NCBI GenBank assembly: GCA_034120015.1 | Contig: JAXEIF010000029.1 | Coordinates: 118,963 to 182,962 of the forward strand | Reading direction: 5' to 3' | Origin: Spirochaetia bacterium | GTDB taxonomy: Bacteria; Spirochaetota; Spirochaetia; JAFGXN01 | Length of the DNA stretch: 64,000 nucleotides | Shown here: positions 5,285-43,602 of the stretch, in pieces | How the letters are laid out: each line of letters starts with the position of its first letter | Numbering within the stretch: position 1 is the stretch's first letter | Notes under the pieces: generated by a model | Told to the model about the DNA's origin: nothing | The model's database searches: none | What the model saw: the letters and a program-made list of their open reading frames with translations, nothing else | Program-made: the position numbers and the translations under genes

Positions 5285-5392
5285 GGAGAATCAAATGAGA
5301 AAGGAGAACCAAATGAGAAAGGAGAACCAAATGAGAAAGGAGAATCAAATGAGAAAGGAGAATCAAATGAGAAAGGAGAATCAAATGAGAAG
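5285..5392 (+). repeat. Six tandem 18-bp repeats (GGAGAAYCAAATGAGAAA), each containing a Shine-Dalgarno-like GGAGA and an in-frame ATG
   Basis: Read directly: ATGs at 5295, 5313, 5331, 5349, 5367 and 5385. Copies occur as T/C variants in the order T,C,C,T,T,T. Translates as MRKENQ repeated five times and then MRRIG.... Confidence 0.9.
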
Positions 5393-6481
5393 AATCGGAA
5401 TGATTATACAGGCGGTTTTGATACTTATCCTGTCTTCCTGCTACAGGGGAGAAGGGGGCACTTTTGGCTACGGAAGCGACGGCGAAGGCGGAGTCATCAT
5501 TAAAAATGCGATTGTGACAGGCGACTCGCTGGTGATTCCGTCGGAAATCAACGGTAAACCGGTGACAGGTATCGGGTACGAATGTTTTTCAAAGAGGCCG
5601 GGATAAAAAGTATTGTCATTCCCGGTTCCGTAAAAGTGATCGGGGAGAGGGCTTTTGGGTCGTGTACCTCTGTGGAGTCGCTGACCATTGAGGACGGGGT
5701 AGAAAAAATCGAAAGTTGGGCTTTCCATAGAGTGCCCATTAAAGAATTGGTCATTCCCGGATCCGTTTCCGAAATCGGAAAGTGGGCCTTTGATGAATGT
5801 GAGAATTTGGAAAAAATAACCATATTGCCCGGAAAGTTAAAGGAATTTCCCATGGCTTTCTTGGGATTGACTTTCAAAGAGGTCATTTTTCCCGAAAATA
5901 TTGAAAGCGTCGACCTGGTCTGGTCTTCCGACGCCCGGGTTGTTTATAATCCGGTGAATATAAGAGCTCCGCTCTTCTCGGGGGCCATCCGGTCGGACGG
6001 GCCTGTCGTTGTCGATCCGCGCTACCCATTCGCCTATACCGGAAGGCTGTACTATTCCGACGAGGTTTATTTACAGTGGGAGCATGAGAATCCGTGGGAT
6101 TTGTATGAACGCACTGTTGAAAATGTATTTTTTGAGCCTCGGACCTCGTCGATGCCGGGGGAGAAGGAGTATGAAGGTTTTCTGGAGTACGGAGGCGGAA
6201 ATGCTTTGACGGATATATACCGCGATAACCTGACCTATTCTCAGTATATAAGAGAGCAGCAAGACAGTACGCAGAACAGATTTTATTTACAACTGGCGGA
6301 AACAGGCGCGCCGCTCACTTTTTATGTTCCGAATGAGACTGCCAAAATGGTGATGGATAATAGAAAGAAGGAAATTCTTCAGTTTACTCCGGAGCAGGCT
6401 CGTGCGCTTTGCGGTGATCCTACTCTGGATTTTGCCAAGACTCTTAATCTTCAGGTGGTTGTCAGGAAATACGGTGAGTGA
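5295..6481 (+). pseudogene. BspA-type leucine-rich-repeat surface lipoprotein, frameshifted at a T5 run (5585-5589). Two ORFs: 5295..5606 and 5582..6481.
   Basis: The N-terminus MRRIGMIIQAVLILILSSC is a lipoprotein signal. IPxSVxxIGxxAF(G/E)xC repeats (LRR_5/BspA type) occur on both sides of the frame break. The final repeat ...GIGYECFSK continues as ...EAGIKSIVIPGSVKVIGERAFGSC in the +1 frame. Confidence 0.55.
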
Positions 6482-20699: not shown

Positions 20700-23396
20700 A
20701 TGAGAAGGTTCGGAAAGAGAGGACTGATTTTCGGATTATTTCTTTTTATGGGATGTGTCGGTGCCGGATGGGATGTCCCCGAGCTTTTTGAAAAACAGCA
20801 GACGACCGATCTTTCCTGTTTTAAAGGTGACGGCGAAAAAGCTCTTGCCGGGTGTGATACCTATTGGGTCGGCGTCGGAATCAGCGATTCGACGGAATAT
20901 CCGTCCGGACAGCTGTGCGGCGGTTATATCGAGTCCAGACAGAAAACAGAGGGTATTTTTACCCGCCAATGGGTTCGGGCATTCGTTATCGCCGAAGGAA
21001 AAAACGGTCCCCGCATAGCGATACTGATTTCCGATGATTGGGCTGTTTCACTGGAAATGCGGGCGGCTTTGATTGAAGAACTGTCAAAAAGCACGCAAAA
21101 AGGCAAAGACGGAACGGAGGTTTCTTTGTTGAATGACGGGTTGACTCCGTATTACAACGACCACAACGTTCTGCTGAATGCGACACACACACATACCGGA
21201 GTTATGGGCGATGCCCAACGTCATCAGTATAATATTTCAGCCGGCGGTTATAACGAAAATTTGATGATGATTACGGTTCGGGCGGCTGTCGAAGCGCTTG
21301 TCGAAGCACATCGGAATCTGGAACCGTGTACAATCGAATTCTCCAAAGGAAAACTGACCGATACATACAATATCTCCAAAAACAGGTCGTTTACGGCTCA
21401 CCTGAACAACGAAAGTGATATTTTCGATTACGGAATGACACCGGAAGAATTTGATGCGTTGCCCGAAGAAGAGGAGAAAGAAGCCTACCGGACGCATGAA
21501 GAGGCGACCGACAAAATGATGTATCTGCTCCGTTTTCGGACGGTCGACGGTCGTGATAAGGGCGCTTTAAACTGGTTTTCGGTTCATCCGACTTCGATCA
21601 GTGCTTCGTTCGGAATGATTTCCGGTGACAGTAAAGGGTTTGCGGCTCAGATGTTTGAAAGCATGATGGGGTCATCGGTAAATACCGATTCGGGTTTTGT
21701 CGCCGGATTTGCCCAGAGCGCTTTGGGAGATGTCGACCCGTGCCGTACCATTTATCACCGGGATAAATTCGGCTACTCGATTGATGAGGAAGCCGAAAAC
21801 GGAATTTATTCGGCACGGGCGCAGGCGGCAAAAGCAATGGAATTATATATGAAGCCGCAGTTTGCTGTTAAAGGACCTGTTGCGTATGCGACACAGTGGG
21901 TGGCAATGGATCGGGTTTTCCTGGATGATGAATTTGCGTACAAACCGGATGTTTATCCGCCCCGAACCTGGCCTCCGGCAACGGGATGGAGTATGGCAAA
22001 GGGTGCCGAGATTCATCAGGTGACGATGCCTCCCGGATTTGTCGAAGGAATGAGTCTGGAAAATGCAAAAAAACCCCGTCATGCTTTATTACCGTTGGTG
22101 CGTTGCCTGTTGGGGCCGTATAAAAATCTGGATACAAAACACGGTTTGCCTAAAATATTTTCTCCTTCCGACGAGTTGAAAGCGGCGCACTTCCCGAAAC
22201 CGATTTTAATGGCATCCGGTAATGCCAATCCGTCATGGATGGATTTGGATCTTCCGTTTCAGATTTTTCGAATCGGAAATATTGCCGTTATCGGCGCTCC
22301 TTTCGAAACGACGACTGTGTCCGGTCGCCGTATACGGGCAGAGGTTAAAAAGGCATTGGAAAAGGCCGGTCAGCCGGTTGAAGAGGTAATTTACTGCGGT
22401 AATTCGAATGCTTACGTCGGTTATATGGCAACGCCGGAAGAATACCGTTTACAGCATTACGAGGGCGGCTCGACTGCTTACGGCATTAACCAGGTTCCTG
22501 CCTGTCAGCAGGAATTTAGCCGGCTTGCCGGAAAACTGGCTGACGGTCAAAGCGGACGTGTTCCCGGTGATCCGGATTGGATTGTGACATCACCGCGTCG
22601 TGTTCCCGCCGATAAAATTGTTTATGCCAAAGAAAAAATTTACCCGGACCGTGTGCCGGCAGGGAAGGTGTTCGGAGAGCAGAAAAAACCTCTTGAAAAA
22701 AAAGAGTGGAAATCCGGAGAGGTATTTTCGGTTTCTTTTTATTCCGCACGTTTAAATACGGAAATTTTTCACAATGATTCGTATTTTTATATTCAAAGAT
22801 ACAGTCCGGAAAAGGCTGCCTGGGTGACCGAGACCGACGATGATGATTTCAACACCAATCTGTACTGGAAAAAAACAACGAACCGGTATTCGACAGCCGA
22901 TGTGATTTGGCGGATTCCTCCCGGAATCCGTGACGGTCTTTACCGCGTTGTTTATAAGGGAAGATTTCGAAAAACAGCAGATGTACGCGATGAAAACAGC
23001 ATCGGATCGTTCACCGGTGTTTCCGAAGAATTTGAAATTAAAGGGAGTGTTTATGCACCGTTATCCGGAACCGTGAGTCGGAAAGGAAACCGGATCGAAC
23101 TCTCTTTCGGGGGCGACGTTAGCGGAGACCTGTTAACATTTCGTCTGAAAGAAGGTTCCGGTGCGTTTGTCGGCAAAGCGATCGTCGATTTCGGAGACGG
23201 AACAAAGTATCCGATTTCGGCACTGATTGACGACGGAAGAACAATTCGGTTTCAGTCTCCGGATCGGAAAGTTTCGAAAATTGTTATAGAGTTTTCGGAA
23301 GCGTCGGACAACATTGCCGATTCTGTCGAAGCGTTTGAATTTTATGATACCGGAATCGAGAACCGCGTTAAGAAGTTTGAACCGTTTTGCACATAG
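20700..23396 (+). CDS. neutral/alkaline ceramidase-family lipoprotein with a long C-terminal extension
   Basis: Lipobox LFMGC. LLNATHTHTGVMGD and VHPTSISASFGMISGDSKGF resemble the neutral-ceramidase catalytic motifs (ATHTHSGP / HGTS...ISGDNKG). Confidence 0.45.
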   Translation: MRRFGKRGLIFGLFLFMGCVGAGWDVPELFEKQQTTDLSCFKGDGEKALAGCDTYWVGVGISDSTEYPSGQLCGGYIESRQKTEGIFTRQWVRAFVIAEGKNGPRIAILISDDWAVSLEMRAALIEELSKSTQKGKDGTEVSLLNDGLTPYYNDHNVLLNATHTHTGVMGDAQRHQYNISAGGYNENLMMITVRAAVEALVEAHRNLEPCTIEFSKGKLTDTYNISKNRSFTAHLNNESDIFDYGMTPEEFDALPEEEEKEAYRTHEEATDKMMYLLRFRTVDGRDKGALNWFSVHPTSISASFGMISGDSKGFAAQMFESMMGSSVNTDSGFVAGFAQSALGDVDPCRTIYHRDKFGYSIDEEAENGIYSARAQAAKAMELYMKPQFAVKGPVAYATQWVAMDRVFLDDEFAYKPDVYPPRTWPPATGWSMAKGAEIHQVTMPPGFVEGMSLENAKKPRHALLPLVRCLLGPYKNLDTKHGLPKIFSPSDELKAAHFPKPILMASGNANPSWMDLDLPFQIFRIGNIAVIGAPFETTTVSGRRIRAEVKKALEKAGQPVEEVIYCGNSNAYVGYMATPEEYRLQHYEGGSTAYGINQVPACQQEFSRLAGKLADGQSGRVPGDPDWIVTSPRRVPADKIVYAKEKIYPDRVPAGKVFGEQKKPLEKKEWKSGEVFSVSFYSARLNTEIFHNDSYFYIQRYSPEKAAWVTETDDDDFNTNLYWKKTTNRYSTADVIWRIPPGIRDGLYRVVYKGRFRKTADVRDENSIGSFTGVSEEFEIKGSVYAPLSGTVSRKGNRIELSFGGDVSGDLLTFRLKEGSGAFVGKAIVDFGDGTKYPISALIDDGRTIRFQSPDRKVSKIVIEFSEASDNIADSVEAFEFYDTGIENRVKKFEPFCT

Positions 23397-35647: not shown

Positions 35648-35707
35648 TTGCGGATTAATTATCCGCAATCTTAAAAAAAGGGTCGTTCGTTTGAACGACC
35701 CTTTTTT
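35648..35707. terminator. two hairpins between convergent genes: TTGCGGAT-TAAT-ATCCGCAA, then a bidirectional terminator AAAAAAAGGGTCGTTC-GTTT-GAACGACCCTTTTTT
   Basis: Read directly. The second hairpin has a perfect 9-bp GC-rich stem flanked by A7 and T6. Confidence 0.75.
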
Positions 35708-35737: not shown

Positions 35738-36079
35738 TTATCTGGCCACGATTTCTTTTATAATAAATTCTCCCCCCTCAATGACTTTACAGTTCTGTGA
35801 TTGACAGTGCGGACATCGGTCTTCGTTTCCTTTTATGGCAAAAGTTTTACCGCAGTTCCAGCAAAGAGCTTTTCCCGGAATAATATTGATTTTTAATTCC
35901 GTTTTTTCCAGTAATGTTCCCTCAATAACGGCAGGATAGCATTCTTCAACATATTCGGGAACCACTCCCGAATATTCGCCGATATTCAATACCAGTGTAC
36001 CGATTTCCGTTACGTTGTTTTCTTTTGCAACCGCTTCTATCTTATCGACGATTTCAGCCATCAATCCCAATTCGTGCAT
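35738..36079 (-). CDS. hypA: hydrogenase/urease nickel-insertion metallochaperone HypA
   Basis: MHELGLMAEIV... N-terminus. C-terminal zinc site CWNCG...CPHCQ. 113 aa. Confidence 0.75.
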   Translation of the reverse strand: MHELGLMAEIVDKIEAVAKENNVTEIGTLVLNIGEYSGVVPEYVEECYPAVIEGTLLEKTELKINIIPGKALCWNCGKTFAIKGNEDRCPHCQSQNCKVIEGGEFIIKEIVAR

Positions 36080-36126
36080 ATCGGTTCTCCTGAGAAAGCG
36101 CCCGTGCAAACGGGCGCTGTGCGGAA

Positions 36127-38823
36127 TTATTTTTTAACGAAAGCATCTTTGATGCTTTTTGCCGTAATTTTACCGGCCCGTTTTACAGCGTATCCCGCAA
36201 CGCGCATCGGTAAATCTTCCAACTTGCCGCCGAAAGCCGGATTCTGTTTTTTTACCAGCTTAATCGCATCGAACTTACATTTGGTAACACAGAGACCGCA
36301 GCCGAGGCATTTGTATGTATCGACAACCGTGGCTCCGCAACCGAGACACCGTTCCGTTTCTTTTTTTACCTGTTCTTCGGTAAAGGCCAGACGGGCGTCG
36401 CGGAAAGTCTTGTCTTTCGACTTGTCGTGTCCGGCGACCTGTCTCGGGGTATTGTCGAATCCGGCTATATCAATATTTTCTTTGTCAAGAGCATGATAGC
36501 GGCGACGGTCACGGCCGAGAATAAGGCTTTGCCCCGGCTGGACAAAGCGGTGCAGGGAAATGGCTGCCTGTTTTCCGGCGGCAATGGCGTCGATAGCAAA
36601 TTTAGGACCCGTAAAGGCATCTCCTCCGACAAAGATATCGGATTCGGCGGTCTGATAAGTGAATCCGTCGGCTTCTGCTGTCATATTCGGGTTCAGTCTG
36701 ACTTTGCTTCCCTTCAGTAAGTCTCCCCAGAGAACAGTCTGTCCGACCGTCAGAAGAATGTAATCCGCGGAAACGGTGATGACTTCAGACTCGTCGAATT
36801 TCGGAGCAAACTTCCGGTTTTCGTCGAAAACGGAAATACATTTTTTGAACTCGATACCGGTCACTTTTCCGTTTTCCGTCAGAATTCGTTTCGGCCCCCA
36901 GCCATGGTCGACCGTAACACCCTCTTCGAGAGCTTCCTCGACTTCGTCGGCGCTGGCCGGCATTTCTTTTTCGCTTTCCAGACAGAACATTCTGACCGAA
37001 TCCGTTTTTTCGCGAATGGCAGTTCTGGCTACATCGACGGCGACATTGCCGCCGCCGATAACAACGATGCGGCCTCTGATGCCGGAGTTCTTACCTGCAT
37101 TCACTGTTTTCAGGAAATCGATGCCCGAAATAACACCTTCCGCTTCTTCCCCTTCAACGCCGATCTTTCGCCCTCCCTGGGCTCCGATTGCCAGGTAAAA
37201 GCCTTTGTAACCCTGTTTGCGCAGTTCGTCGAGCGTGACATCTTTCCCGACATCGATACCGGTTTTGAATTCGACACCGAGTTCGCGCAGAACATCGATT
37301 TCCGCATTCAAAACATCTTTTTCCAAACGGAACGACGGAATTCCGAGAGCAAGCATTCCGCCCGGTTTTTCTTCTTTTTCGAAAACGGTGACCGAATAGT
37401 TGTCGATAGCCAGGTAGTATGCGCACGCCAGACCGGCCGGTCCCGAACCGATAACGGCAATTTTCTTATCGGAATAGTCATGCATTTTTTTCGGAATAAA
37501 GCGGGTTTCTTTTTTCAATTCCCGTTCCGCCAAAAAGCGCTTGATTTCGTCGATAGCAATCGGCTGGTCGATTTCACCGCGCGTACATTCGTCCTCGCAG
37601 GCGTGATTACAGATCCGTCCGCAAACCGCCGGCAGAGGGTTTTCCTTTTTAATCAGTTCGAGAGCCTCGTCGTATTTGCCCTGAGCCGCCAGTTTGATAT
37701 ATCCCTGAACCGCAATATGGGCGGGGCATTTGGTTTTACACGGAGCTGTTCCCGTGTCGACGACGTCTTCGGAATTGGTACGGTAGTCGACGTTCCATTT
37801 CTTTTGCGTCCAGACGGTGTCGGTAATTTTGTCATATTCTTTTTCCGGCTTAATCGGTGTGATTGTACAGAGCTTTTGTCCGAGTTTCAGTGCGTTCGAC
37901 GGACAGGATTCGACACATTGACCGCAGGCGACGCAGTTTTCGGGATTGATTTCCGAGTAGTAGTTACTGCCGACCGCGCTGTAAGCGCCGAAGAGGGTTG
38001 CCACGCGTAATCCGAAGCAGGAACAGCTGCAGCAGTTACAGATAGCAGCCGAACTGCCGGTTCCGTCGATGTTGGGCAGCTGATGCATCAGCCCGTTTTC
38101 TTCTGCCCGTTTCAGAATTTCATAAACCTCTTCCCGCGTAATTTGACGTGCACGGCCGGTTCGGATAAAATATTCGGCCCCTTTCCCCATCTGCAGGCAA
38201 ATGTCGTGTTCCAGGTGTCCGCATCCTTCTCCCATAATTCGTCGGGTTCTCCGGCAGGAGCACGGCGCAACGGAAAAAACATCGTATTTATTAATATAGT
38301 AGCTTAAACGTTCGGCATCGACAGTTTGGGGATTGCCGTCGATAGCCTGTTCGATGGGAATGACGCGCATCAGTCCTGTACCGTTCGGGAGGAGAGAGGC
38401 CATAGAGGCCATTCTTTCCCGTGTGTACTGTTCAAAGGCGCGGGCTATTTGCGGATACTTTTCGACGAGTTCTTTATTTCCGACCATCATCTCCAAAATT
38501 CCCGGAGCGAATGTTTGGACAAAAAAGCAATCTTCGCCCTCTTTTGTTTTATTGACTCGCAAAACACCCTTATCTGCCAGAGACAACAGAAGCTGATGCG
38601 TTTTTTCGGGACTTAAGCCCAGTTTTGTCTGTGCTTTTTTCTGAATTTCGGAAATCGGAGTTTCCGTTCTCCATTTCAGGAGCAGCGCCGCGTCGGCCTC
38701 TTCATCGGAGACACAGCATTCCAGTGAGTAATACTCGGGTGATTCGGCGGTTATCCGGTTCAGCATACCGGGTGTTCCGCCGACCAGTTTTGCCAGTTTG
38801 ACAATCTTCTTTCTTAAAGCCAT
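36127..38823 (-). CDS. multi-domain Fe-S flavoprotein (YgfK/AegA-like). N-terminal Cys-rich region, 2x[4Fe-4S], a GltD-like FAD/NAD(P)H pyridine-nucleotide-disulfide oxidoreductase domain, and a C-terminal 2x[4Fe-4S] ferredoxin.
   Basis: Dinucleotide-binding fold KKIAVIGSGPAGLACAYYL. GltD-type cluster region CPAHIAVQGY...AVCGRICNHACEDEC. C-terminal CLGCGATVVDTYKCLGCGLCVTKC. N-terminal APCSCRR...CNCCSCSCFG...CVACGQCVESCP. Confidence 0.55.
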   Translation of the reverse strand: MALRKKIVKLAKLVGGTPGMLNRITAESPEYYSLECCVSDEEADAALLLKWRTETPISEIQKKAQTKLGLSPEKTHQLLLSLADKGVLRVNKTKEGEDCFFVQTFAPGILEMMVGNKELVEKYPQIARAFEQYTRERMASMASLLPNGTGLMRVIPIEQAIDGNPQTVDAERLSYYINKYDVFSVAPCSCRRTRRIMGEGCGHLEHDICLQMGKGAEYFIRTGRARQITREEVYEILKRAEENGLMHQLPNIDGTGSSAAICNCCSCSCFGLRVATLFGAYSAVGSNYYSEINPENCVACGQCVESCPSNALKLGQKLCTITPIKPEKEYDKITDTVWTQKKWNVDYRTNSEDVVDTGTAPCKTKCPAHIAVQGYIKLAAQGKYDEALELIKKENPLPAVCGRICNHACEDECTRGEIDQPIAIDEIKRFLAERELKKETRFIPKKMHDYSDKKIAVIGSGPAGLACAYYLAIDNYSVTVFEKEEKPGGMLALGIPSFRLEKDVLNAEIDVLRELGVEFKTGIDVGKDVTLDELRKQGYKGFYLAIGAQGGRKIGVEGEEAEGVISGIDFLKTVNAGKNSGIRGRIVVIGGGNVAVDVARTAIREKTDSVRMFCLESEKEMPASADEVEEALEEGVTVDHGWGPKRILTENGKVTGIEFKKCISVFDENRKFAPKFDESEVITVSADYILLTVGQTVLWGDLLKGSKVRLNPNMTAEADGFTYQTAESDIFVGGDAFTGPKFAIDAIAAGKQAAISLHRFVQPGQSLILGRDRRRYHALDKENIDIAGFDNTPRQVAGHDKSKDKTFRDARLAFTEEQVKKETERCLGCGATVVDTYKCLGCGLCVTKCKFDAIKLVKKQNPAFGGKLEDLPMRVAGYAVKRAGKITAKSIKDAFVKK

Positions 38824-38841
38824 TTCATCCTCCGTATAAAA

Positions 38842-39552
38842 TTAATGACGGTTTTTCATTAACGCATTGGGTTGTATTATTTCGGAACTTTTCCATTCGG
38901 CGACTGCATCTTTCAGCCATTGAATCCAGGAAAGGATGCCTTCGCCCGTTTTCCCCGAAATCGTAAAAATCCGAATATTCGGATTGAGTTTTCGTACCCG
39001 TTCGATGCACAAGTCGATATTGAAATCGAAATAGGGCAGGACGTCGATTTTGTTAATCAGCAGAACATCGCAAACGGCAAACATATTCGGATATTTAAGA
39101 GGTTTGTCGTCTCCTTCTGGTACGCTGAGAATCATCGCGTTGGCTGCCGCTCCCGTATCGAATTCGGCGGGACAGATCAGATTGCCGATATTTTCAATAA
39201 CGGCCAAATCGATATTTTCGAGCCCGATGCCGTCGGTTCCCTGTCGGGTCATTCCTGCCGTCAGGTGGCACATACCTCCGGTATGAAGCTGAACAGCTTT
39301 GGCTCCGGCTTCGGCCACTGCGCGGGCATCGACATCGGAATCGATATCGGCTTCCAAAACGGCAATTTTCAAATCATTTTTCAGTTCACCGATTGTTTTT
39401 TCCAGAAAAGTAGTTTTCCCCGAACCGGGAGAGGACATCAGATTGAGAAGAAACGTTTTTCCTTTTTTCAGTTCGGCACGCAGACGGTCAGCTTCCGCAT
39501 TGTTGTCGGCATAAACACTTTGCTTAATTTCAATAACACGAAATGCATCCAT
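38842..39552 (-). CDS. hypB: hydrogenase nickel-incorporation GTPase HypB
   Basis: P-loop LMSSPGSGKTT. Metal-site residues GGMCHL and NLICPAEFD. 236 aa. Confidence 0.8.
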   Translation of the reverse strand: MDAFRVIEIKQSVYADNNAEADRLRAELKKGKTFLLNLMSSPGSGKTTFLEKTIGELKNDLKIAVLEADIDSDVDARAVAEAGAKAVQLHTGGMCHLTAGMTRQGTDGIGLENIDLAVIENIGNLICPAEFDTGAAANAMILSVPEGDDKPLKYPNMFAVCDVLLINKIDVLPYFDFNIDLCIERVRKLNPNIRIFTISGKTGEGILSWIQWLKDAVAEWKSSEIIQPNALMKNRH

Positions 39553-39573
39553 AAATTCAGTTACCTCAACAAT

Positions 39574-39602
39574 ATTATATGTTGAGAAATGCCGTTTTTC
39601 AA
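39574..39602 (-). promoter_or_regulatory. sigma70-like promoter for hypB (TTGAAA-17-TATAAT). The inverted repeat CTCAAC-N10-GTTGAG spans the -10 box.
   Basis: The reverse complement of 39560-39603 reads cTTGAAAaacggcatttctcaacaTATAATattgttGAGGTaactgaatttATG. Palindrome arms at 39565-39570 and 39581-39586. Confidence 0.55.
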
Positions 39603-39933: not shown

Positions 39934-39962
39934 TTGACAATTTTTTTTTTTCGCGTTATAAT
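39934..39962 (+). promoter_or_regulatory. consensus sigma70 promoter TTGACA-17-TATAAT driving rubredoxin
   Basis: TTGACA at 39934-39939, a 17-nt T-rich spacer, TATAAT at 39957-39962. The ribosome-binding site AAAGGAGA follows about 15 nt downstream. Confidence 0.7.
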
Positions 39963-39992: not shown

Positions 39993-40151
39993 ATGCAGAA
40001 ATATGTTTGTGATTTGTGCGGATATGTTTACGATCCTGCCGTAGGCGATCCCGACAGCGGTATTGCTCCGGGAACACCGTTTGAGGCAATTCCCGAAGAC
40101 TGGGTTTGTCCGGTTTGCGGAGCTGCCAAAAGCATGTTTTCCGCCCAGTAA
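39993..40151 (+). CDS. rub: rubredoxin (52 aa). Absent from the ORF track, which omits ORFs under 60 aa.
   Basis: Translation: [52 protein letters not shown]. Canonical CxxCG...CPxCG rubredoxin. Followed by terminator GAGAAAGGGG-ATGT-CCCCTTTCT + T5 at 40156-40183. Confidence 0.85.
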
Positions 40152-40234: not shown

Positions 40235-40972
40235 ATGAAGAAAATTTTTACTGTTATGTTTATTCTGTTTGCGTTGGGTGCGTTTGCACAGGAATCGAGT
40301 CGAATGCCGCTGATCGGCGATCCGGCTCCGGCGTTTACAGCCGTGACGACACAGGGAACCATTGATTTTCCGAAAGATTTTAAAGGAAAATGGGTGATTC
40401 TGTTCAGCCATCCCGCCGATTTTACGCCCGTCTGTACCACAGAATTTATGACGTTTGCTTCCATGATCGATGAATTTGCGGCTTTGAATACCCAGCTGGT
40501 CGGTCTTTCGATTGATTCGCTGTATGCTCACATCGCCTGGCTGCGAAAAATTCAGGAACTCAAGTGGAAAGATCTCGAAAACATCGAAGTCACTTTCCCT
40601 CTGATTGAAGACATCAAAATGGAAGTTGCCAAAAAATACGGAATGCTTCAGCCGAATGCCTCTTCGACACAGGCTGTCCGTGCCGTCTTTATTATTGATC
40701 CGAAAGGAATTATCCGCACGATTCTGTACTATCCGCTTTCGACCGGACGTAACTTCGACGAAATTAAACGGTTGGTTCAGGCACTGCAGAAAGCCGACGA
40801 AGGTGTGGCGACCCCTGCCGACTGGAGACCGGGAGATGATGTGATTGTGCCGACAGCAGGCTCCTGCGGAACCGCAAAAGAAAGAATGGAAAATCAGACA
40901 GCGGATCAGTACTGCCTTGACTGGTTTATGTGCTTCAGAAAAGATAATGCGGGTAAAAAGGGCAGAAAGTAA
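40235..40972 (+). CDS. 1-Cys peroxiredoxin (Prx6/AhpC-TSA family) with an N-terminal signal peptide
   Basis: FSHPADFTPVCTTE peroxidatic-Cys motif. MKKIFTVMFILFALGAFAQE signal-peptide-like leader. 245 aa. Confidence 0.7.
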   Translation: MKKIFTVMFILFALGAFAQESSRMPLIGDPAPAFTAVTTQGTIDFPKDFKGKWVILFSHPADFTPVCTTEFMTFASMIDEFAALNTQLVGLSIDSLYAHIAWLRKIQELKWKDLENIEVTFPLIEDIKMEVAKKYGMLQPNASSTQAVRAVFIIDPKGIIRTILYYPLSTGRNFDEIKRLVQALQKADEGVATPADWRPGDDVIVPTAGSCGTAKERMENQTADQYCLDWFMCFRKDNAGKKGRK

Positions 40973-41067: not shown

Positions 41068-43602
41068 TTACTTTTCGATGATGTCCGTTACCGTATAGCC
41101 TGCGCCGGTGACGGCCTTTTTCAAAACGTCGACCGCGGTATTGTTTTCGATGCGGCAGGTGGCCTTGGCTGTTTGCAGGTCGACGGTTGCGGAAACGCCT
41201 TCCACGGCGTTCAGAGCCGATTCGACATGGGTACGGCAGTGGTTGCACATCATACCTTCGATTTTCAGTTCGACCGTTTTCATGGGAAAACCTCCTTGAT
41301 TTTTGTTTTTACCGATTATCGCATCCCGTGAAAAGCGGGATCGGAAGCGTTTTAACCGCAGTGCGTTGCCGACAACGCAAATCGAGCTGAGGCTCATGGC
41401 CGCAGCGGCAAACTCCGGTCGCAGCGGAATACCGAAAAGCGCTTCGAGCAGTCCCGACGCGGCCGGAATCCCGAGACAGTTATAAAACAGTGCCCAAAAC
41501 AAATTTTCTTTAATATTGTGCATAACTTTTCGGCTGAGTCGCAACGCCGTCACAGCATCGGAAAGACGGTTGTTCATCAGAACAATTTCGGCTGTTTCAA
41601 TCGCAATGTCGGACCCGCCGGCGGGGGCGATACCGATATCGGCGCGGGCAAGTGCCGGCGAGTCGTTGATGCCGTCTCCGGTCATACCGACGCTGTGACC
41701 TTCGTTTTGAAGGCGGCGGATTTCTGCCTCTTTGTCCTGCGGTAAAAGACCTGCCCGGACTGTTTCGATTCCAACCAGGGCGCCGACGGCCGCTGCCGTT
41801 TCCGCGCGGTCTCCCGTCAGCATGACGGGAGTGATGCCCATTTCTTTTAAACCGGCAACGGCCTCTGCCGAATCGGGTTTCGGGCGGTCGATGACGGACA
41901 GTGTGCCGAGAAAACGTCCGTTTTCGGCAAAAAAGAGCGGCGTTTCGCCGCCTGAGACGGCGTCGCCCGCCCCGGCGGGCACGGTAATGCCGTTTTCCGT
42001 CAGAAAAGAGGCATTGCCGGCGTAAACGGTGTTGCCCGAAACGGTGCCGCAGATGCCTCTGCCGGGAACTGTCTGCAGATTGTCGGCCGGCGGGTAATTT
42101 ATATTGAGAGCGGCTGCATAGGCGGTGACGGCATCCGCCAGCGGGTGAGAGGAACCCGCTTCGAGGGCGGCTGCGGTCTTTATAAGTTCGTCTTTTGTTA
42201 CTCCGGGTGACGGTCGCACCGCTGTGACGGACGGTCTGCCTTCGGTCAAAGTTCCTGTTTTATCCAGTAACAAAAAGTCGATGCGGCCGGCTTTTTCCAG
42301 CGCTTCGCCGTTTCGGATCAGAATTCCCAGTTCGGCGCCGCGTCCGATTCCGACTGTTACGGCTGTCGGTGTGGCCAGCCCCAAAGCGCACGGACAGGAA
42401 ATGACCAAAACCGCGATTGCCCGCCCGAGCGCCGTTTCGAAACCGAGTCCGAAAAATAAGGCGGCGGCAAACGTTACGAGAGCAATCGTCATCACAACGG
42501 GAACAAAAACGCGGCTGATGCGGTCGGCCAGACGCGCAATCGGGGCTTTGGAGGCGGATGCTTCTTCGACAAGAGAAATAATGCGGGCCAAAGTGTTTTC
42601 TTTACCGACACGGGTGGCCCGTACTTTGAGCAGTCCCCACCGGTTGACGGATCCGGCCAAAACAGAATCGTCCGGATTCTTTTCGACAGGGATGCTTTCG
42701 CCGGTCAACGCCGATTCATCCATTGCCGAACTGCCTTCGATCACCGTTCCGTCGGCCGCGGCTGTTTCTCCGGCTTTAATCAGGAAGATTTCATCTTTAA
42801 GCAGACTGTCGGCGGGAATTGTTTCCTCACGGCCGTTACGTATGACGGTTACCGATCGCGGCGATAAATCGATCAGTTTTTCGATGACCGAAGATGTTCT
42901 GCGTCGGGCACGGCTTTCCAGGTATTTCCCCAGAGAAACGAGCGTCAGAATCATGCCGGCCGATTCGAAATAGAGGTGAGTACCGTATTGTTTTACAAGA
43001 GTCTGATTACCTGTTTCCAGGCCGTATCCGAGCCGGTACAGGGCAAAAAGGCTGTATGCAACGGCTGCACCGGCACCGACGGCAATCAGCGAATCCATAA
43101 TCGGTTTCCCGCGAAACAGCGTTTTGAAACCGCCGGTAAAATAGGAGCGGTTTAAAAACAAAATCGGAATCAGCAGCAGAAATTGCGTTAAAGCGGAAAG
43201 AAGGGTGCCGTGAAATGCGGCAACGGTCGAGCCGGGAGCAAAGCGGTGCGCTGCCATCAACCCCATATCGAGCAGAAACAGCGGTACCAGAAAAACGGCC
43301 GAAAAAATCAGCCGCATACGCGTTTCCCGGTCGGCTGCCGCCGTTTTTCCGGTGGTCAACCCTGAATCCGAACCGCGATCGGCCGCTTCCGACGGCGTTA
43401 TGGGGCGGTAACCCGCCTTTTTGACGGCATCACAAAAATGGTGTTCGTTTGTGCGGGTTTCGTCATAAACGATTTGGGCTTTATTTGTCAGCAGGCTGAC
43501 CCGAACCGAGTCGACGCCTTCTATTTTTTTTACGGCATCTTCGACATGAACGGCGCAGGCCGAACATGTCATGCCCTCGATATTGATTTCACATTTTTTC
43601 AT
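41068..43602 (-). CDS. copA: heavy-metal (Cu+/Ag+-type) translocating P1B-type ATPase with HMA domains at both the N- and C-termini
   Basis: N-terminal GMTCSACAVHVE, CPCALGLATP, DKTGTLT, GDGINDSPAL, C-terminal GMMCNHCRTHVE. 844 aa. Confidence 0.8.
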   Translation of the reverse strand: MKKCEINIEGMTCSACAVHVEDAVKKIEGVDSVRVSLLTNKAQIVYDETRTNEHHFCDAVKKAGYRPITPSEAADRGSDSGLTTGKTAAADRETRMRLIFSAVFLVPLFLLDMGLMAAHRFAPGSTVAAFHGTLLSALTQFLLLIPILFLNRSYFTGGFKTLFRGKPIMDSLIAVGAGAAVAYSLFALYRLGYGLETGNQTLVKQYGTHLYFESAGMILTLVSLGKYLESRARRRTSSVIEKLIDLSPRSVTVIRNGREETIPADSLLKDEIFLIKAGETAAADGTVIEGSSAMDESALTGESIPVEKNPDDSVLAGSVNRWGLLKVRATRVGKENTLARIISLVEEASASKAPIARLADRISRVFVPVVMTIALVTFAAALFFGLGFETALGRAIAVLVISCPCALGLATPTAVTVGIGRGAELGILIRNGEALEKAGRIDFLLLDKTGTLTEGRPSVTAVRPSPGVTKDELIKTAAALEAGSSHPLADAVTAYAAALNINYPPADNLQTVPGRGICGTVSGNTVYAGNASFLTENGITVPAGAGDAVSGGETPLFFAENGRFLGTLSVIDRPKPDSAEAVAGLKEMGITPVMLTGDRAETAAAVGALVGIETVRAGLLPQDKEAEIRRLQNEGHSVGMTGDGINDSPALARADIGIAPAGGSDIAIETAEIVLMNNRLSDAVTALRLSRKVMHNIKENLFWALFYNCLGIPAASGLLEALFGIPLRPEFAAAAMSLSSICVVGNALRLKRFRSRFSRDAIIGKNKNQGGFPMKTVELKIEGMMCNHCRTHVESALNAVEGVSATVDLQTAKATCRIENNTAVDVLKKAVTGAGYTVTDIIEK

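Follow-up and report, generated by a model that had tools for sequence, protein, structure and literature searches.

The three genes discussed here lie on the minus strand of a 64,000-nucleotide stretch of DNA from a Spirochaetia bacterium (NCBI GenBank assembly GCA_034120015.1, contig JAXEIF010000029.1, positions 118,963 to 182,962 of the forward strand), which at its full length is called the window. Two of them, hypB and hypA, encode nickel metallochaperones; the third, between them, encodes an iron-sulfur flavoprotein of 898 residues, here simply called X. HypA and HypB are the canonical nickel insertases of hydrogenase and urease. An initial annotation, made from the letters alone, had described the order hypB, X, hypA, a promoter of hypB's own and the lack of any structural gene for a nickel enzyme in the window. 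All three open reading frames (ORFs) indeed lie where it had placed them, the promoter was located at 39602-39574 (minus strand), and among the other large ORFs of the window Pfam revealed no [NiFe]-hydrogenase, urease, CODH or other nickel-enzyme family and no hypCDEF. The unit spans 39602-35673 on the minus strand. Its parts are, in the order of reading:

39574..39602, minus strand: promoter of the sigma-70 type, TTGAAA-17-TATAAT, 5' of hypB; 11 of 12 consensus positions match
38842..39552, minus strand: hypB, nickel metallochaperone GTPase of the G3E family, 236 residues; TIGR00073 with 245 bits against a cut-off of 121, PF02492
36127..38823, minus strand: X, an IsrA-like (clade 9) Fe-S flavoprotein by ORF, domain and homolog matches, 898 residues
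36096..36118, minus strand: hairpin between X and hypA, GCGCCCGUUUGCACGGGCGC then UUUCUC; folding free energy (dG) -19.8 kcal/mol, z -3.6
35738..36079, minus strand: hypA, nickel metallochaperone, 113 residues; PF01155 with 109 bits (threshold 28.9)
35673..35701, minus strand: intrinsic terminator 3' of hypA, GGGUCGUUC-AAA-CGAACGACCC then U7; dG -21.6 kcal/mol, z -6.7

These parts form one three-gene unit, with a promoter in front and a strong terminator at its end. The genes are closely spaced, with gaps of 18 nucleotides (nt) between hypB and X and of 47 nt between X and hypA, and spacing and signals together suggest that they are co-transcribed. A scan for promoter-like sites yielded 8 against 5.8 +/- 2.1 expected. 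The call of the hypB promoter is not based on such statistics. It is based on the position of the promoter, directly after the terminator hairpin of the upstream gene (39630-39610), and on the conservation of its hexamers in a relative of 94% identity (L005). At the other end, none of 200 shuffled sequences was as stable as the terminator 3' of hypA; judging by the A-run beside it, it probably serves the convergent symporter gene as well. The hairpin between X and hypA is placed between the stop codon of X and the ribosome-binding site (RBS) of hypA. It could act as a partial terminator or attenuator, or stabilise the mRNA, and might thereby set the ratio of X to HypA.

A perfect 7-bp inverted repeat of operator-like appearance, CTCAACA-N8-TGTTGAG (39565-39586, minus strand), extends across the -10 box of the hypB promoter. 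A NikR- or Fur-like operator at 39586-39565 was considered and discarded: the arms of the repeat are not kept in the 94%-identical L005, and there is only a short CCCG...CGGG dyad.

The two chaperones look orthodox. HypB has the P-loop SPGSGKT, a metal site made of C95-H96...C127 and the motif NKID at 167; an N-terminal CXXCGC site is absent, as in one of the known types of HypB. HypA has the MHE N-terminus and the zinc site C73-x2-C76...C89-x2-C92. In the program-made list of ORFs, hypA starts at TTG 36109, which makes 123 residues. Its true start is ATG 36079, because the MHE N-terminus is conserved, the RBS reads AGGAGA and the orthologs have 113 residues.

X is the unusual partner. Its ATG is preceded, at a distance of 8 nt, by a GGAGGA RBS, and its domains are arranged as follows:

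38374..38823, minus strand: residues 1-150, winged-helix subdomain and helical linker
37954..38373, minus strand: residues 151-290, Cys-rich subdomain with C188, C190, C209, C262, C264 and C269, and with C201, H247, C265 and C267
37864..37953, minus strand: residues 291-320, half-ferredoxin C297-x2-C300-x2-C303-x3-C307-P; PF00037 at 291-313
37510..37752, minus strand: residues 358-438, Fer4_20, 2x[4Fe-4S] as in NfnB, GltD and DPD; PF14691 with 78 bits
36574..37464, minus strand: residues 454-750, Pyr_redox_2, FAD/NAD(P)H; PF07992 with 82.7 bits, PDB sequence matches to NfnB 5jca_L, StnA-like 8oh5_C and 9n5u_A
36232..36348, minus strand: residues 826-864, C-terminal ferredoxin C826-x2-C829, C839-x2-C842-x2-C845-x3-C849; PF00037 and PF13187

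Across 32-98 family members, the six cysteines C188, C190, C209, C262, C264 and C269 vary little or not at all, and C201, R191 and H247 are also highly conserved. The cysteines of the half-ferredoxin (C297-C307) are kept in ~90% of the family. By analogy with the model of IsrA (see below), this motif and the C-terminal ones would pair to form a split 2x[4Fe-4S] ferredoxin; the cysteines of Fer4_20 are residues 362, 366, 401, 405, 409 and 413. Neither Pfam nor NCBIfam has a model that matches residues 1-290 of X, or this region of any homolog tested. The Cys-rich subdomain found no relative among solved structures, and fold-level kinship of the N-terminal region with ACS, CODH, FTR or HdrB received no support. 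The region is nevertheless far from rare. In an exhaustive search, the family of the N-terminal module (residues 1-338 of X), for which Pfam and NCBIfam hold no model, comprised 2,473 clusters at 50% identity: ~900-residue fusions like X and many stand-alone proteins of ~360 residues that end in a 2x[4Fe-4S] ferredoxin.

The remainder of X is better known. Residues ~320-860 are homologous to proteins of the NfnB/GltD type, with E values from 1e-59 to 1e-97 and of 4e-59 for 5jca_L in the search of PDB sequences. Solved relatives of this flavoprotein module are StnA-like proteins, a 963-residue 'NfnA' (9n5u_A), NfnB and GltD. The three parts that the initial annotation had distinguished, a Cys-rich N-terminus, a GltD-type module and a C-terminal ferredoxin, are all there; the likeness to GltD and NfnB is limited to the flavoprotein module. 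Its label 'YgfK/AegA-like' has to be dropped, since X scores 291 bits against a curated NCBIfam cut-off of 835 for YgfK, and 232 against 1003 for AegA. Even the best score, 441 bits for NF009410, stays below the cut-off of 516, and X surpasses none of the curated equivalog cut-offs tested (GltD, NfnB-like PRK12771, YgfK, AegA and YgfT).

The homolog of X in L005 (10001-12769, protein P0001), 94% identical, is publicly called with 922 residues; that call begins farther upstream and runs into hypB, with an overlap of 55 nt. This is probably a miscall of the start codon; RBS and alignment favour the start that yields 898 residues.

A protein of this kind has been described before. As described by Kronen et al. 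2023 (PMC10134865), Acetobacterium wieringae ISORED-2 induces IsrA (VUZ27132.1), its putative isoprene reductase of 901 residues, while it reduces isoprene. The isr operon has five genes: isrA, two hypA, hypB and a gene for a stand-alone ferredoxin that aligns to the first ~270 residues of IsrA. The order within IsrA is given as an unannotated N-terminus of ~270 residues, a ferredoxin motif at ~289-300, Fer4_20, the FAD/NAD(P)H part and a ferredoxin motif at ~848-877. In the published model, four canonical [4Fe-4S] clusters are lined up as a chain, and six cysteines, with CxC motifs at C180/C182 and C254/C256, make up a fifth site. This site, called Cys6 or cluster V, is said there to resemble P-cluster and double-cubane sites and the A-cluster of ACS, and the authors propose that HypA and HypB insert nickel into it. 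ISORED-2 itself is reported to lack a [NiFe]-hydrogenase and hypCDEF, and its other nickel enzymes have maturases of their own. In a neighbourhood network of 988 homologs, HypA scored 0.73, HypB 0.56, DUF5692 0.4 and TetR 0.21; the homologs of 'clade 9' include Spirochaetes. According to a preprint of 2026, isoprene induces hypA ~370-fold and hypB ~585-fold in Pelotomaculum; nickel in IsrA is still a hypothesis there.

X shares with clade 9 the domain order over ~900 residues, the Cys6 site with its CxC spacing and the hypA/hypB neighbours. Its Cys-rich subdomain corresponds to the Cys6 site of that literature, and the 74 residues from C188/C190 to C262/C264 are exactly the spacing of IsrA and of nearly all fused members examined. 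Set against the published description of IsrA, X thus matches the IsrA-like clade 9 family as a new member. The initial annotation had held that a pairing of HypAB with such an oxidoreductase is not a described arrangement. That is no longer tenable, as PMC10134865 covers both the architecture and the HypA/HypB neighbourhood for the 988 homologs, Spirochaetes included. Its idea of a nickel-dependent redox enzyme is likewise already in print as the working model for IsrA. What we can add is a higher estimate of adjacency at the species level, the exact set of invariant cysteines in X, a Cys-rich subdomain without a solved relative, the apparent substitution of a CooC-like protein for HypB in three lineages and a compact Treponema operon suited to expression.

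How firmly the chaperones are tied to X was assessed by a genome scan with patterns specific for the N-domain, derived from a five-sequence alignment of fused N-domains. It gave at least 474 confirmed matches. Linkage was counted in the best 80 of these, each from a distinct species, of which 73 loci had enough sequence to be assessed. In 67 of the 73 (92%), hypA lies directly downstream of X on the same strand, with gaps of 3-83 nt; in 3 further loci it is found elsewhere within 10 kb. The gene hypB adjoins the X/hypA module in 32 loci, upstream in 28 and after hypA in 4. The linked HypAs retain the nickel-binding MHE end in 71 of 73 cases, and both CxxC zinc pairs also in 71 of 73. Full-length homologs of X form >120 clusters at >=65% identity, in Treponema and in Clostridia. 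The order hypB-X-hypA is preserved in the 94% relative, and T. maltophilum has X-hypA as well, as do unrelated Firmicutes contigs with wholly different other neighbours; hypB is present in some of these cases and absent in others. The linkage persists in clusters with 37-41% identity in the N-domain. The initial annotation would have taken a canonical [NiFe]-hydrogenase operon elsewhere, combined with a gene order not conserved in relatives, as a sign of coincidence; the order proved to be conserved, and the pairing of X with hypA and hypB is not due to chance.

The other neighbours are less constant. Hydrogenase, urease or hypCDEF families do not recur in the flanks of the X loci examined. 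On the upstream side of X, 27 of 85 loci have a divergently transcribed gene for a GntR/FCD regulator with a weak FadR_C match; on the downstream side, ~17 have membrane proteins of the DUF5692 type. Near some X loci there are CrtI-like amine-oxidase flavoproteins, and in L003/L004 genes for an acyl-ACP thioesterase, an AMP-ligase and ACP. These neighbours, none of which is present in the window, hint at a lipid or another hydrophobic substrate.

Three loci without hypB have, immediately after hypA, a gene for a MinD-type ATPase whose sequence includes a GCYC (CxC) motif (L027:4849-5598, L028:13173-13925 and L066:13011-13775). Its best solved match is CooC1 (3kje), the nickel insertase of CODH, with an E value of 2e-12; NCBIfam sees generic MinD/ParA similarity only. 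With moderate support from these matches, the ATPase may be a second class of nickel-insertion NTPase that was recruited in place of HypB. The accessible text of PMC10134865 does not describe such an ATPase in IsrA-type loci.

A mechanism can be sketched from these pieces. By homology and by the published model of IsrA, NAD(P)H would reduce the FAD in the NfnB/GltD-type module of X. The electrons would then pass through four [4Fe-4S] clusters, two in Fer4_20 and two in the split ferredoxin (~297-307 and ~826-849), and would end at the metal site of the six invariant cysteines. There the substrate would be reduced; by analogy with IsrA it is probably a hydrophobic compound with a C=C bond that takes up the electrons. 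HypB, as the GTPase, and HypA would be dedicated to X and most likely place nickel in the Cys6 site or beside it. That nickel is the metal delivered, and Cys6 its destination, is suggested by the gene linkage and by the motifs retained: the MHE and zinc sites of HypA, the CH...C of HypB and the CooC-like ATPase in the three hypB-less lineages. The reported lack of [NiFe]-hydrogenase and hypCDEF in ISORED-2, whose other nickel enzymes have their own maturases, and the induction of hypA and hypB in Pelotomaculum also speak for nickel. A nickel-dependent redox enzyme is in our opinion the best reading of the comparative data. We assign a probability of roughly 0.6 to the reading that X is a clade 9 enzyme with a dedicated HypB/HypA pair, with nickel most likely at or beside the Cys6 site and the substrate reduced there. 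The initial guess of a nickel-dependent enzyme is thus strengthened by the adjacency of X and hypA in 92% of the 73 species loci, and as to the nickel itself it keeps its hypothetical status.

A number of observations weigh against this reading. HypA of the window scores 85.6 bits with TIGR00100, just below the cut-off of 88.1. No hypA is found within 10 kb of X in Treponema sp. HNW L012, in L076 and in the Oscillospiraceae L003/L004. X and hypA could be uncoupled in part by the hairpin that separates them. For nickel in any family member, the literature offers neither biochemical evidence nor a metal analysis. Whereas hypA is near universal, more than half of the loci have no hypB, which is unexpected if the full nickel relay were essential. 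Also, the stand-alone N-domain homologs keep the six cysteines and have no hypA neighbour in any of three cases, just as no link to HypA was seen for the stand-alone ferredoxin in PMC10134865. A Cys6 site by itself is thus no predictor that HypA is needed.

The last two points favour the alternative that HypA and HypB are dedicated to X and deliver no catalytic nickel. They might deliver another metal (Zn, Fe or Co), or HypA might be a stable zinc-ribbon subunit or an assembly factor for an all-iron Cys6 cluster, be it double-cubane-like or an unusual [Fe-S] cluster. The G3E GTPases as a class are, after all, generally known to handle several metals, and the published comparison of the site includes the P-cluster and double-cubane as well as the A-cluster (PMC10134865). 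Yet 71 of the 73 HypAs have the nickel-specific MHE, HypB is far above the cut-off of an equivalog for nickel insertion into hydrogenase, and in three lineages it is a protein like the nickel insertase CooC that seems to stand in for HypB. We thus consider a function without nickel unlikely, although it is the strongest competitor of the nickel reading.

Still less probable is that HypA and HypB serve a conventional nickel enzyme elsewhere in the genome, with X as its electron-transfer partner or as an unrelated passenger. The view of this genome is limited to 64 kb, and another nickel client could be encoded beyond. Apart from the canonical role of the two chaperones, urease occurs in some Treponema, and P. 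schinkii has an isrA-like gene along with group 4 [NiFe]-hydrogenases. Such a client would hardly account for hypA being adjacent to X in 92% of the 73 loci with unrelated other neighbours, nor for hydrogenase, urease and hypCDEF being neither recurrent in the flanks nor detected in the window. ISORED-2, moreover, has the module and, by the published account, neither a [NiFe]-hydrogenase nor hypCDEF (PMC10134865). The initial annotation had offered a version of this explanation, with X as the diaphorase of a hydrogenase encoded elsewhere. It is not supported either: the chaperones travel with X into unrelated contexts, and no hydrogenase family recurs near X in the flanks examined. The least credible proposal takes X as a redox- or metal-sensing DNA-binding regulator, instead of an enzyme or besides being one, on account of its N-terminal winged helix. 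The matches behind that helix show an identity of only 6-19%, and Pfam gives no significant helix-turn-helix match in X. Joined to the domain is a complete electron-transfer chain of NAD(P)H, FAD and 4x[4Fe-4S], and many orthologs have separate GntR or TetR regulators beside them. That IsrA is among the most strongly induced proteins in isoprene reduction, as reported in PMC10134865, also fits an enzyme.

The nickel reading can be extended, with chances that we rate somewhat below even. X and its relatives might be a new class of nickel enzymes, in which HypA, together with HypB or a CooC-like ATPase, builds a Ni-Fe-S centre on the six cysteines, within a fold that has no solved relative. The substrate would be a hydrophobic compound from the host or its diet, not isoprene itself but for instance an isoprenoid or unsaturated lipid, and the centre would reduce one of its unactivated C=C bonds. 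The organisms concerned would be host-associated Treponema, Oscillospiraceae and Lachnospiraceae.

If HypA and HypB metallate the X family, the short list of nickel enzymes becomes longer, and a third kind of client joins hydrogenase and urease. The family is common in anaerobes of the gut, the rumen and the mouth, some clusters of homologs being present on hundreds of metagenome contigs, and its substrate could matter for host-associated redox metabolism. Should the reduction of C=C bonds by nickel prove true, anaerobes of the gut and the mouth would possess a widespread electron sink that has escaped recognition. The nickel hypothesis as such is already published; new would be its confirmation and a physiology not related to isoprene. 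The value of the window is modest in this respect: it provides hypB-X-hypA complete in a Treponema, as a compact and self-contained operon that is convenient for heterologous expression. For annotators there is a caution, too: hypA and hypB are here not evidence of a [NiFe]-hydrogenase.

The other sizeable ORFs of the window are, by Pfam, housekeeping and host-interaction genes. Divergent from the hypB operon, behind a promoter with a 12/12 consensus match (39934-39962), lie genes for a rubredoxin (39993-40151, plus strand) and for a peroxiredoxin of the AhpC/1-Cys type (40235-40972, plus strand), which look like an oxidative-stress unit. A link of X to these genes was considered and rejected: they are on the other strand, have their own promoter and do not recur beside X in other species. 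They are adjoined by a copper-type P1B ATPase with two HMA domains (41068-43602, minus strand). Farther away, an ORF at 5295-5606 (plus strand) opens with the hexapeptide MRKENQ five times in tandem (a repeat unit of 18 nt), followed by a hydrophobic segment; it could be the slippage-prone start of a gene for a surface protein or lipoprotein. A homolog of neutral/alkaline ceramidase with 898 residues is encoded at 20700-23396 (plus strand; PF04734, E 1e-96), in the vicinity of a GH20 hexosaminidase, a fucosidase-like protein and a BspA-type leucine-rich-repeat protein. This gene content suggests a host-associated Treponema that degrades glycosphingolipids and glycans of its host.

How does the system compare with known ones? 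With proteins of the NfnB/SudA/GltD type (5jca_L, 4ylf_B), the StnA-like ones (8oh5_C, 9bov_A) and 9n5u_A, X has in common Fer4_20 and the sites for FAD and NAD(P)H. These proteins do not have its N-terminal domain of winged helix and Cys-rich part. They also work with partner subunits (NfnA, GltB, StnBC), which are absent from the locus in the window, and are not linked to nickel chaperones.

HypA and HypB of E. coli and Helicobacter pylori share with the proteins of the window the MHE nickel site, the zinc ribbon, the G3E GTPase and the CH...C motif, and HypB of H. pylori likewise lacks the N-terminal high-affinity site. The difference is in the client: there it is the large subunit of hydrogenase, or urease, whereas in the window it is apparently a flavoprotein. 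Unlike in the Hyp systems of hydrogenase and urease, no gene for hypCDEF, SlyD or an endopeptidase is near hypA and hypB. The MinD-type ATPases CooC and AcsF (3kje) insert nickel into CODH/ACS; a CooC-like gene is absent from the window.

IsrA and clade 9 are the closest parallel. As described in PMC10134865, they agree with X in the ~900 residues, the domain order, the CxC motifs 74 residues apart and the immediate neighbours hypA and hypB. The isr operon proper differs by its two hypA genes and its stand-alone ferredoxin; in the window there is one hypA, and neither a second one nor a stand-alone N-domain ferredoxin was found among the ORFs. For this reason X should not be called an isoprene reductase. 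Cluster I, to which IsrA belongs, moreover has an insertion of 26 residues (756-782 in IsrA) and is tied to isoprene, whereas nothing connects X to this compound. Finally, the analogy drawn in the same text is with the Ni-[4Fe-4S] A-cluster of ACS and with double-cubane proteins; the shared trait is a Cys-rich site that ends a chain of Fe-S clusters, in the model of IsrA next to a predicted substrate tunnel.

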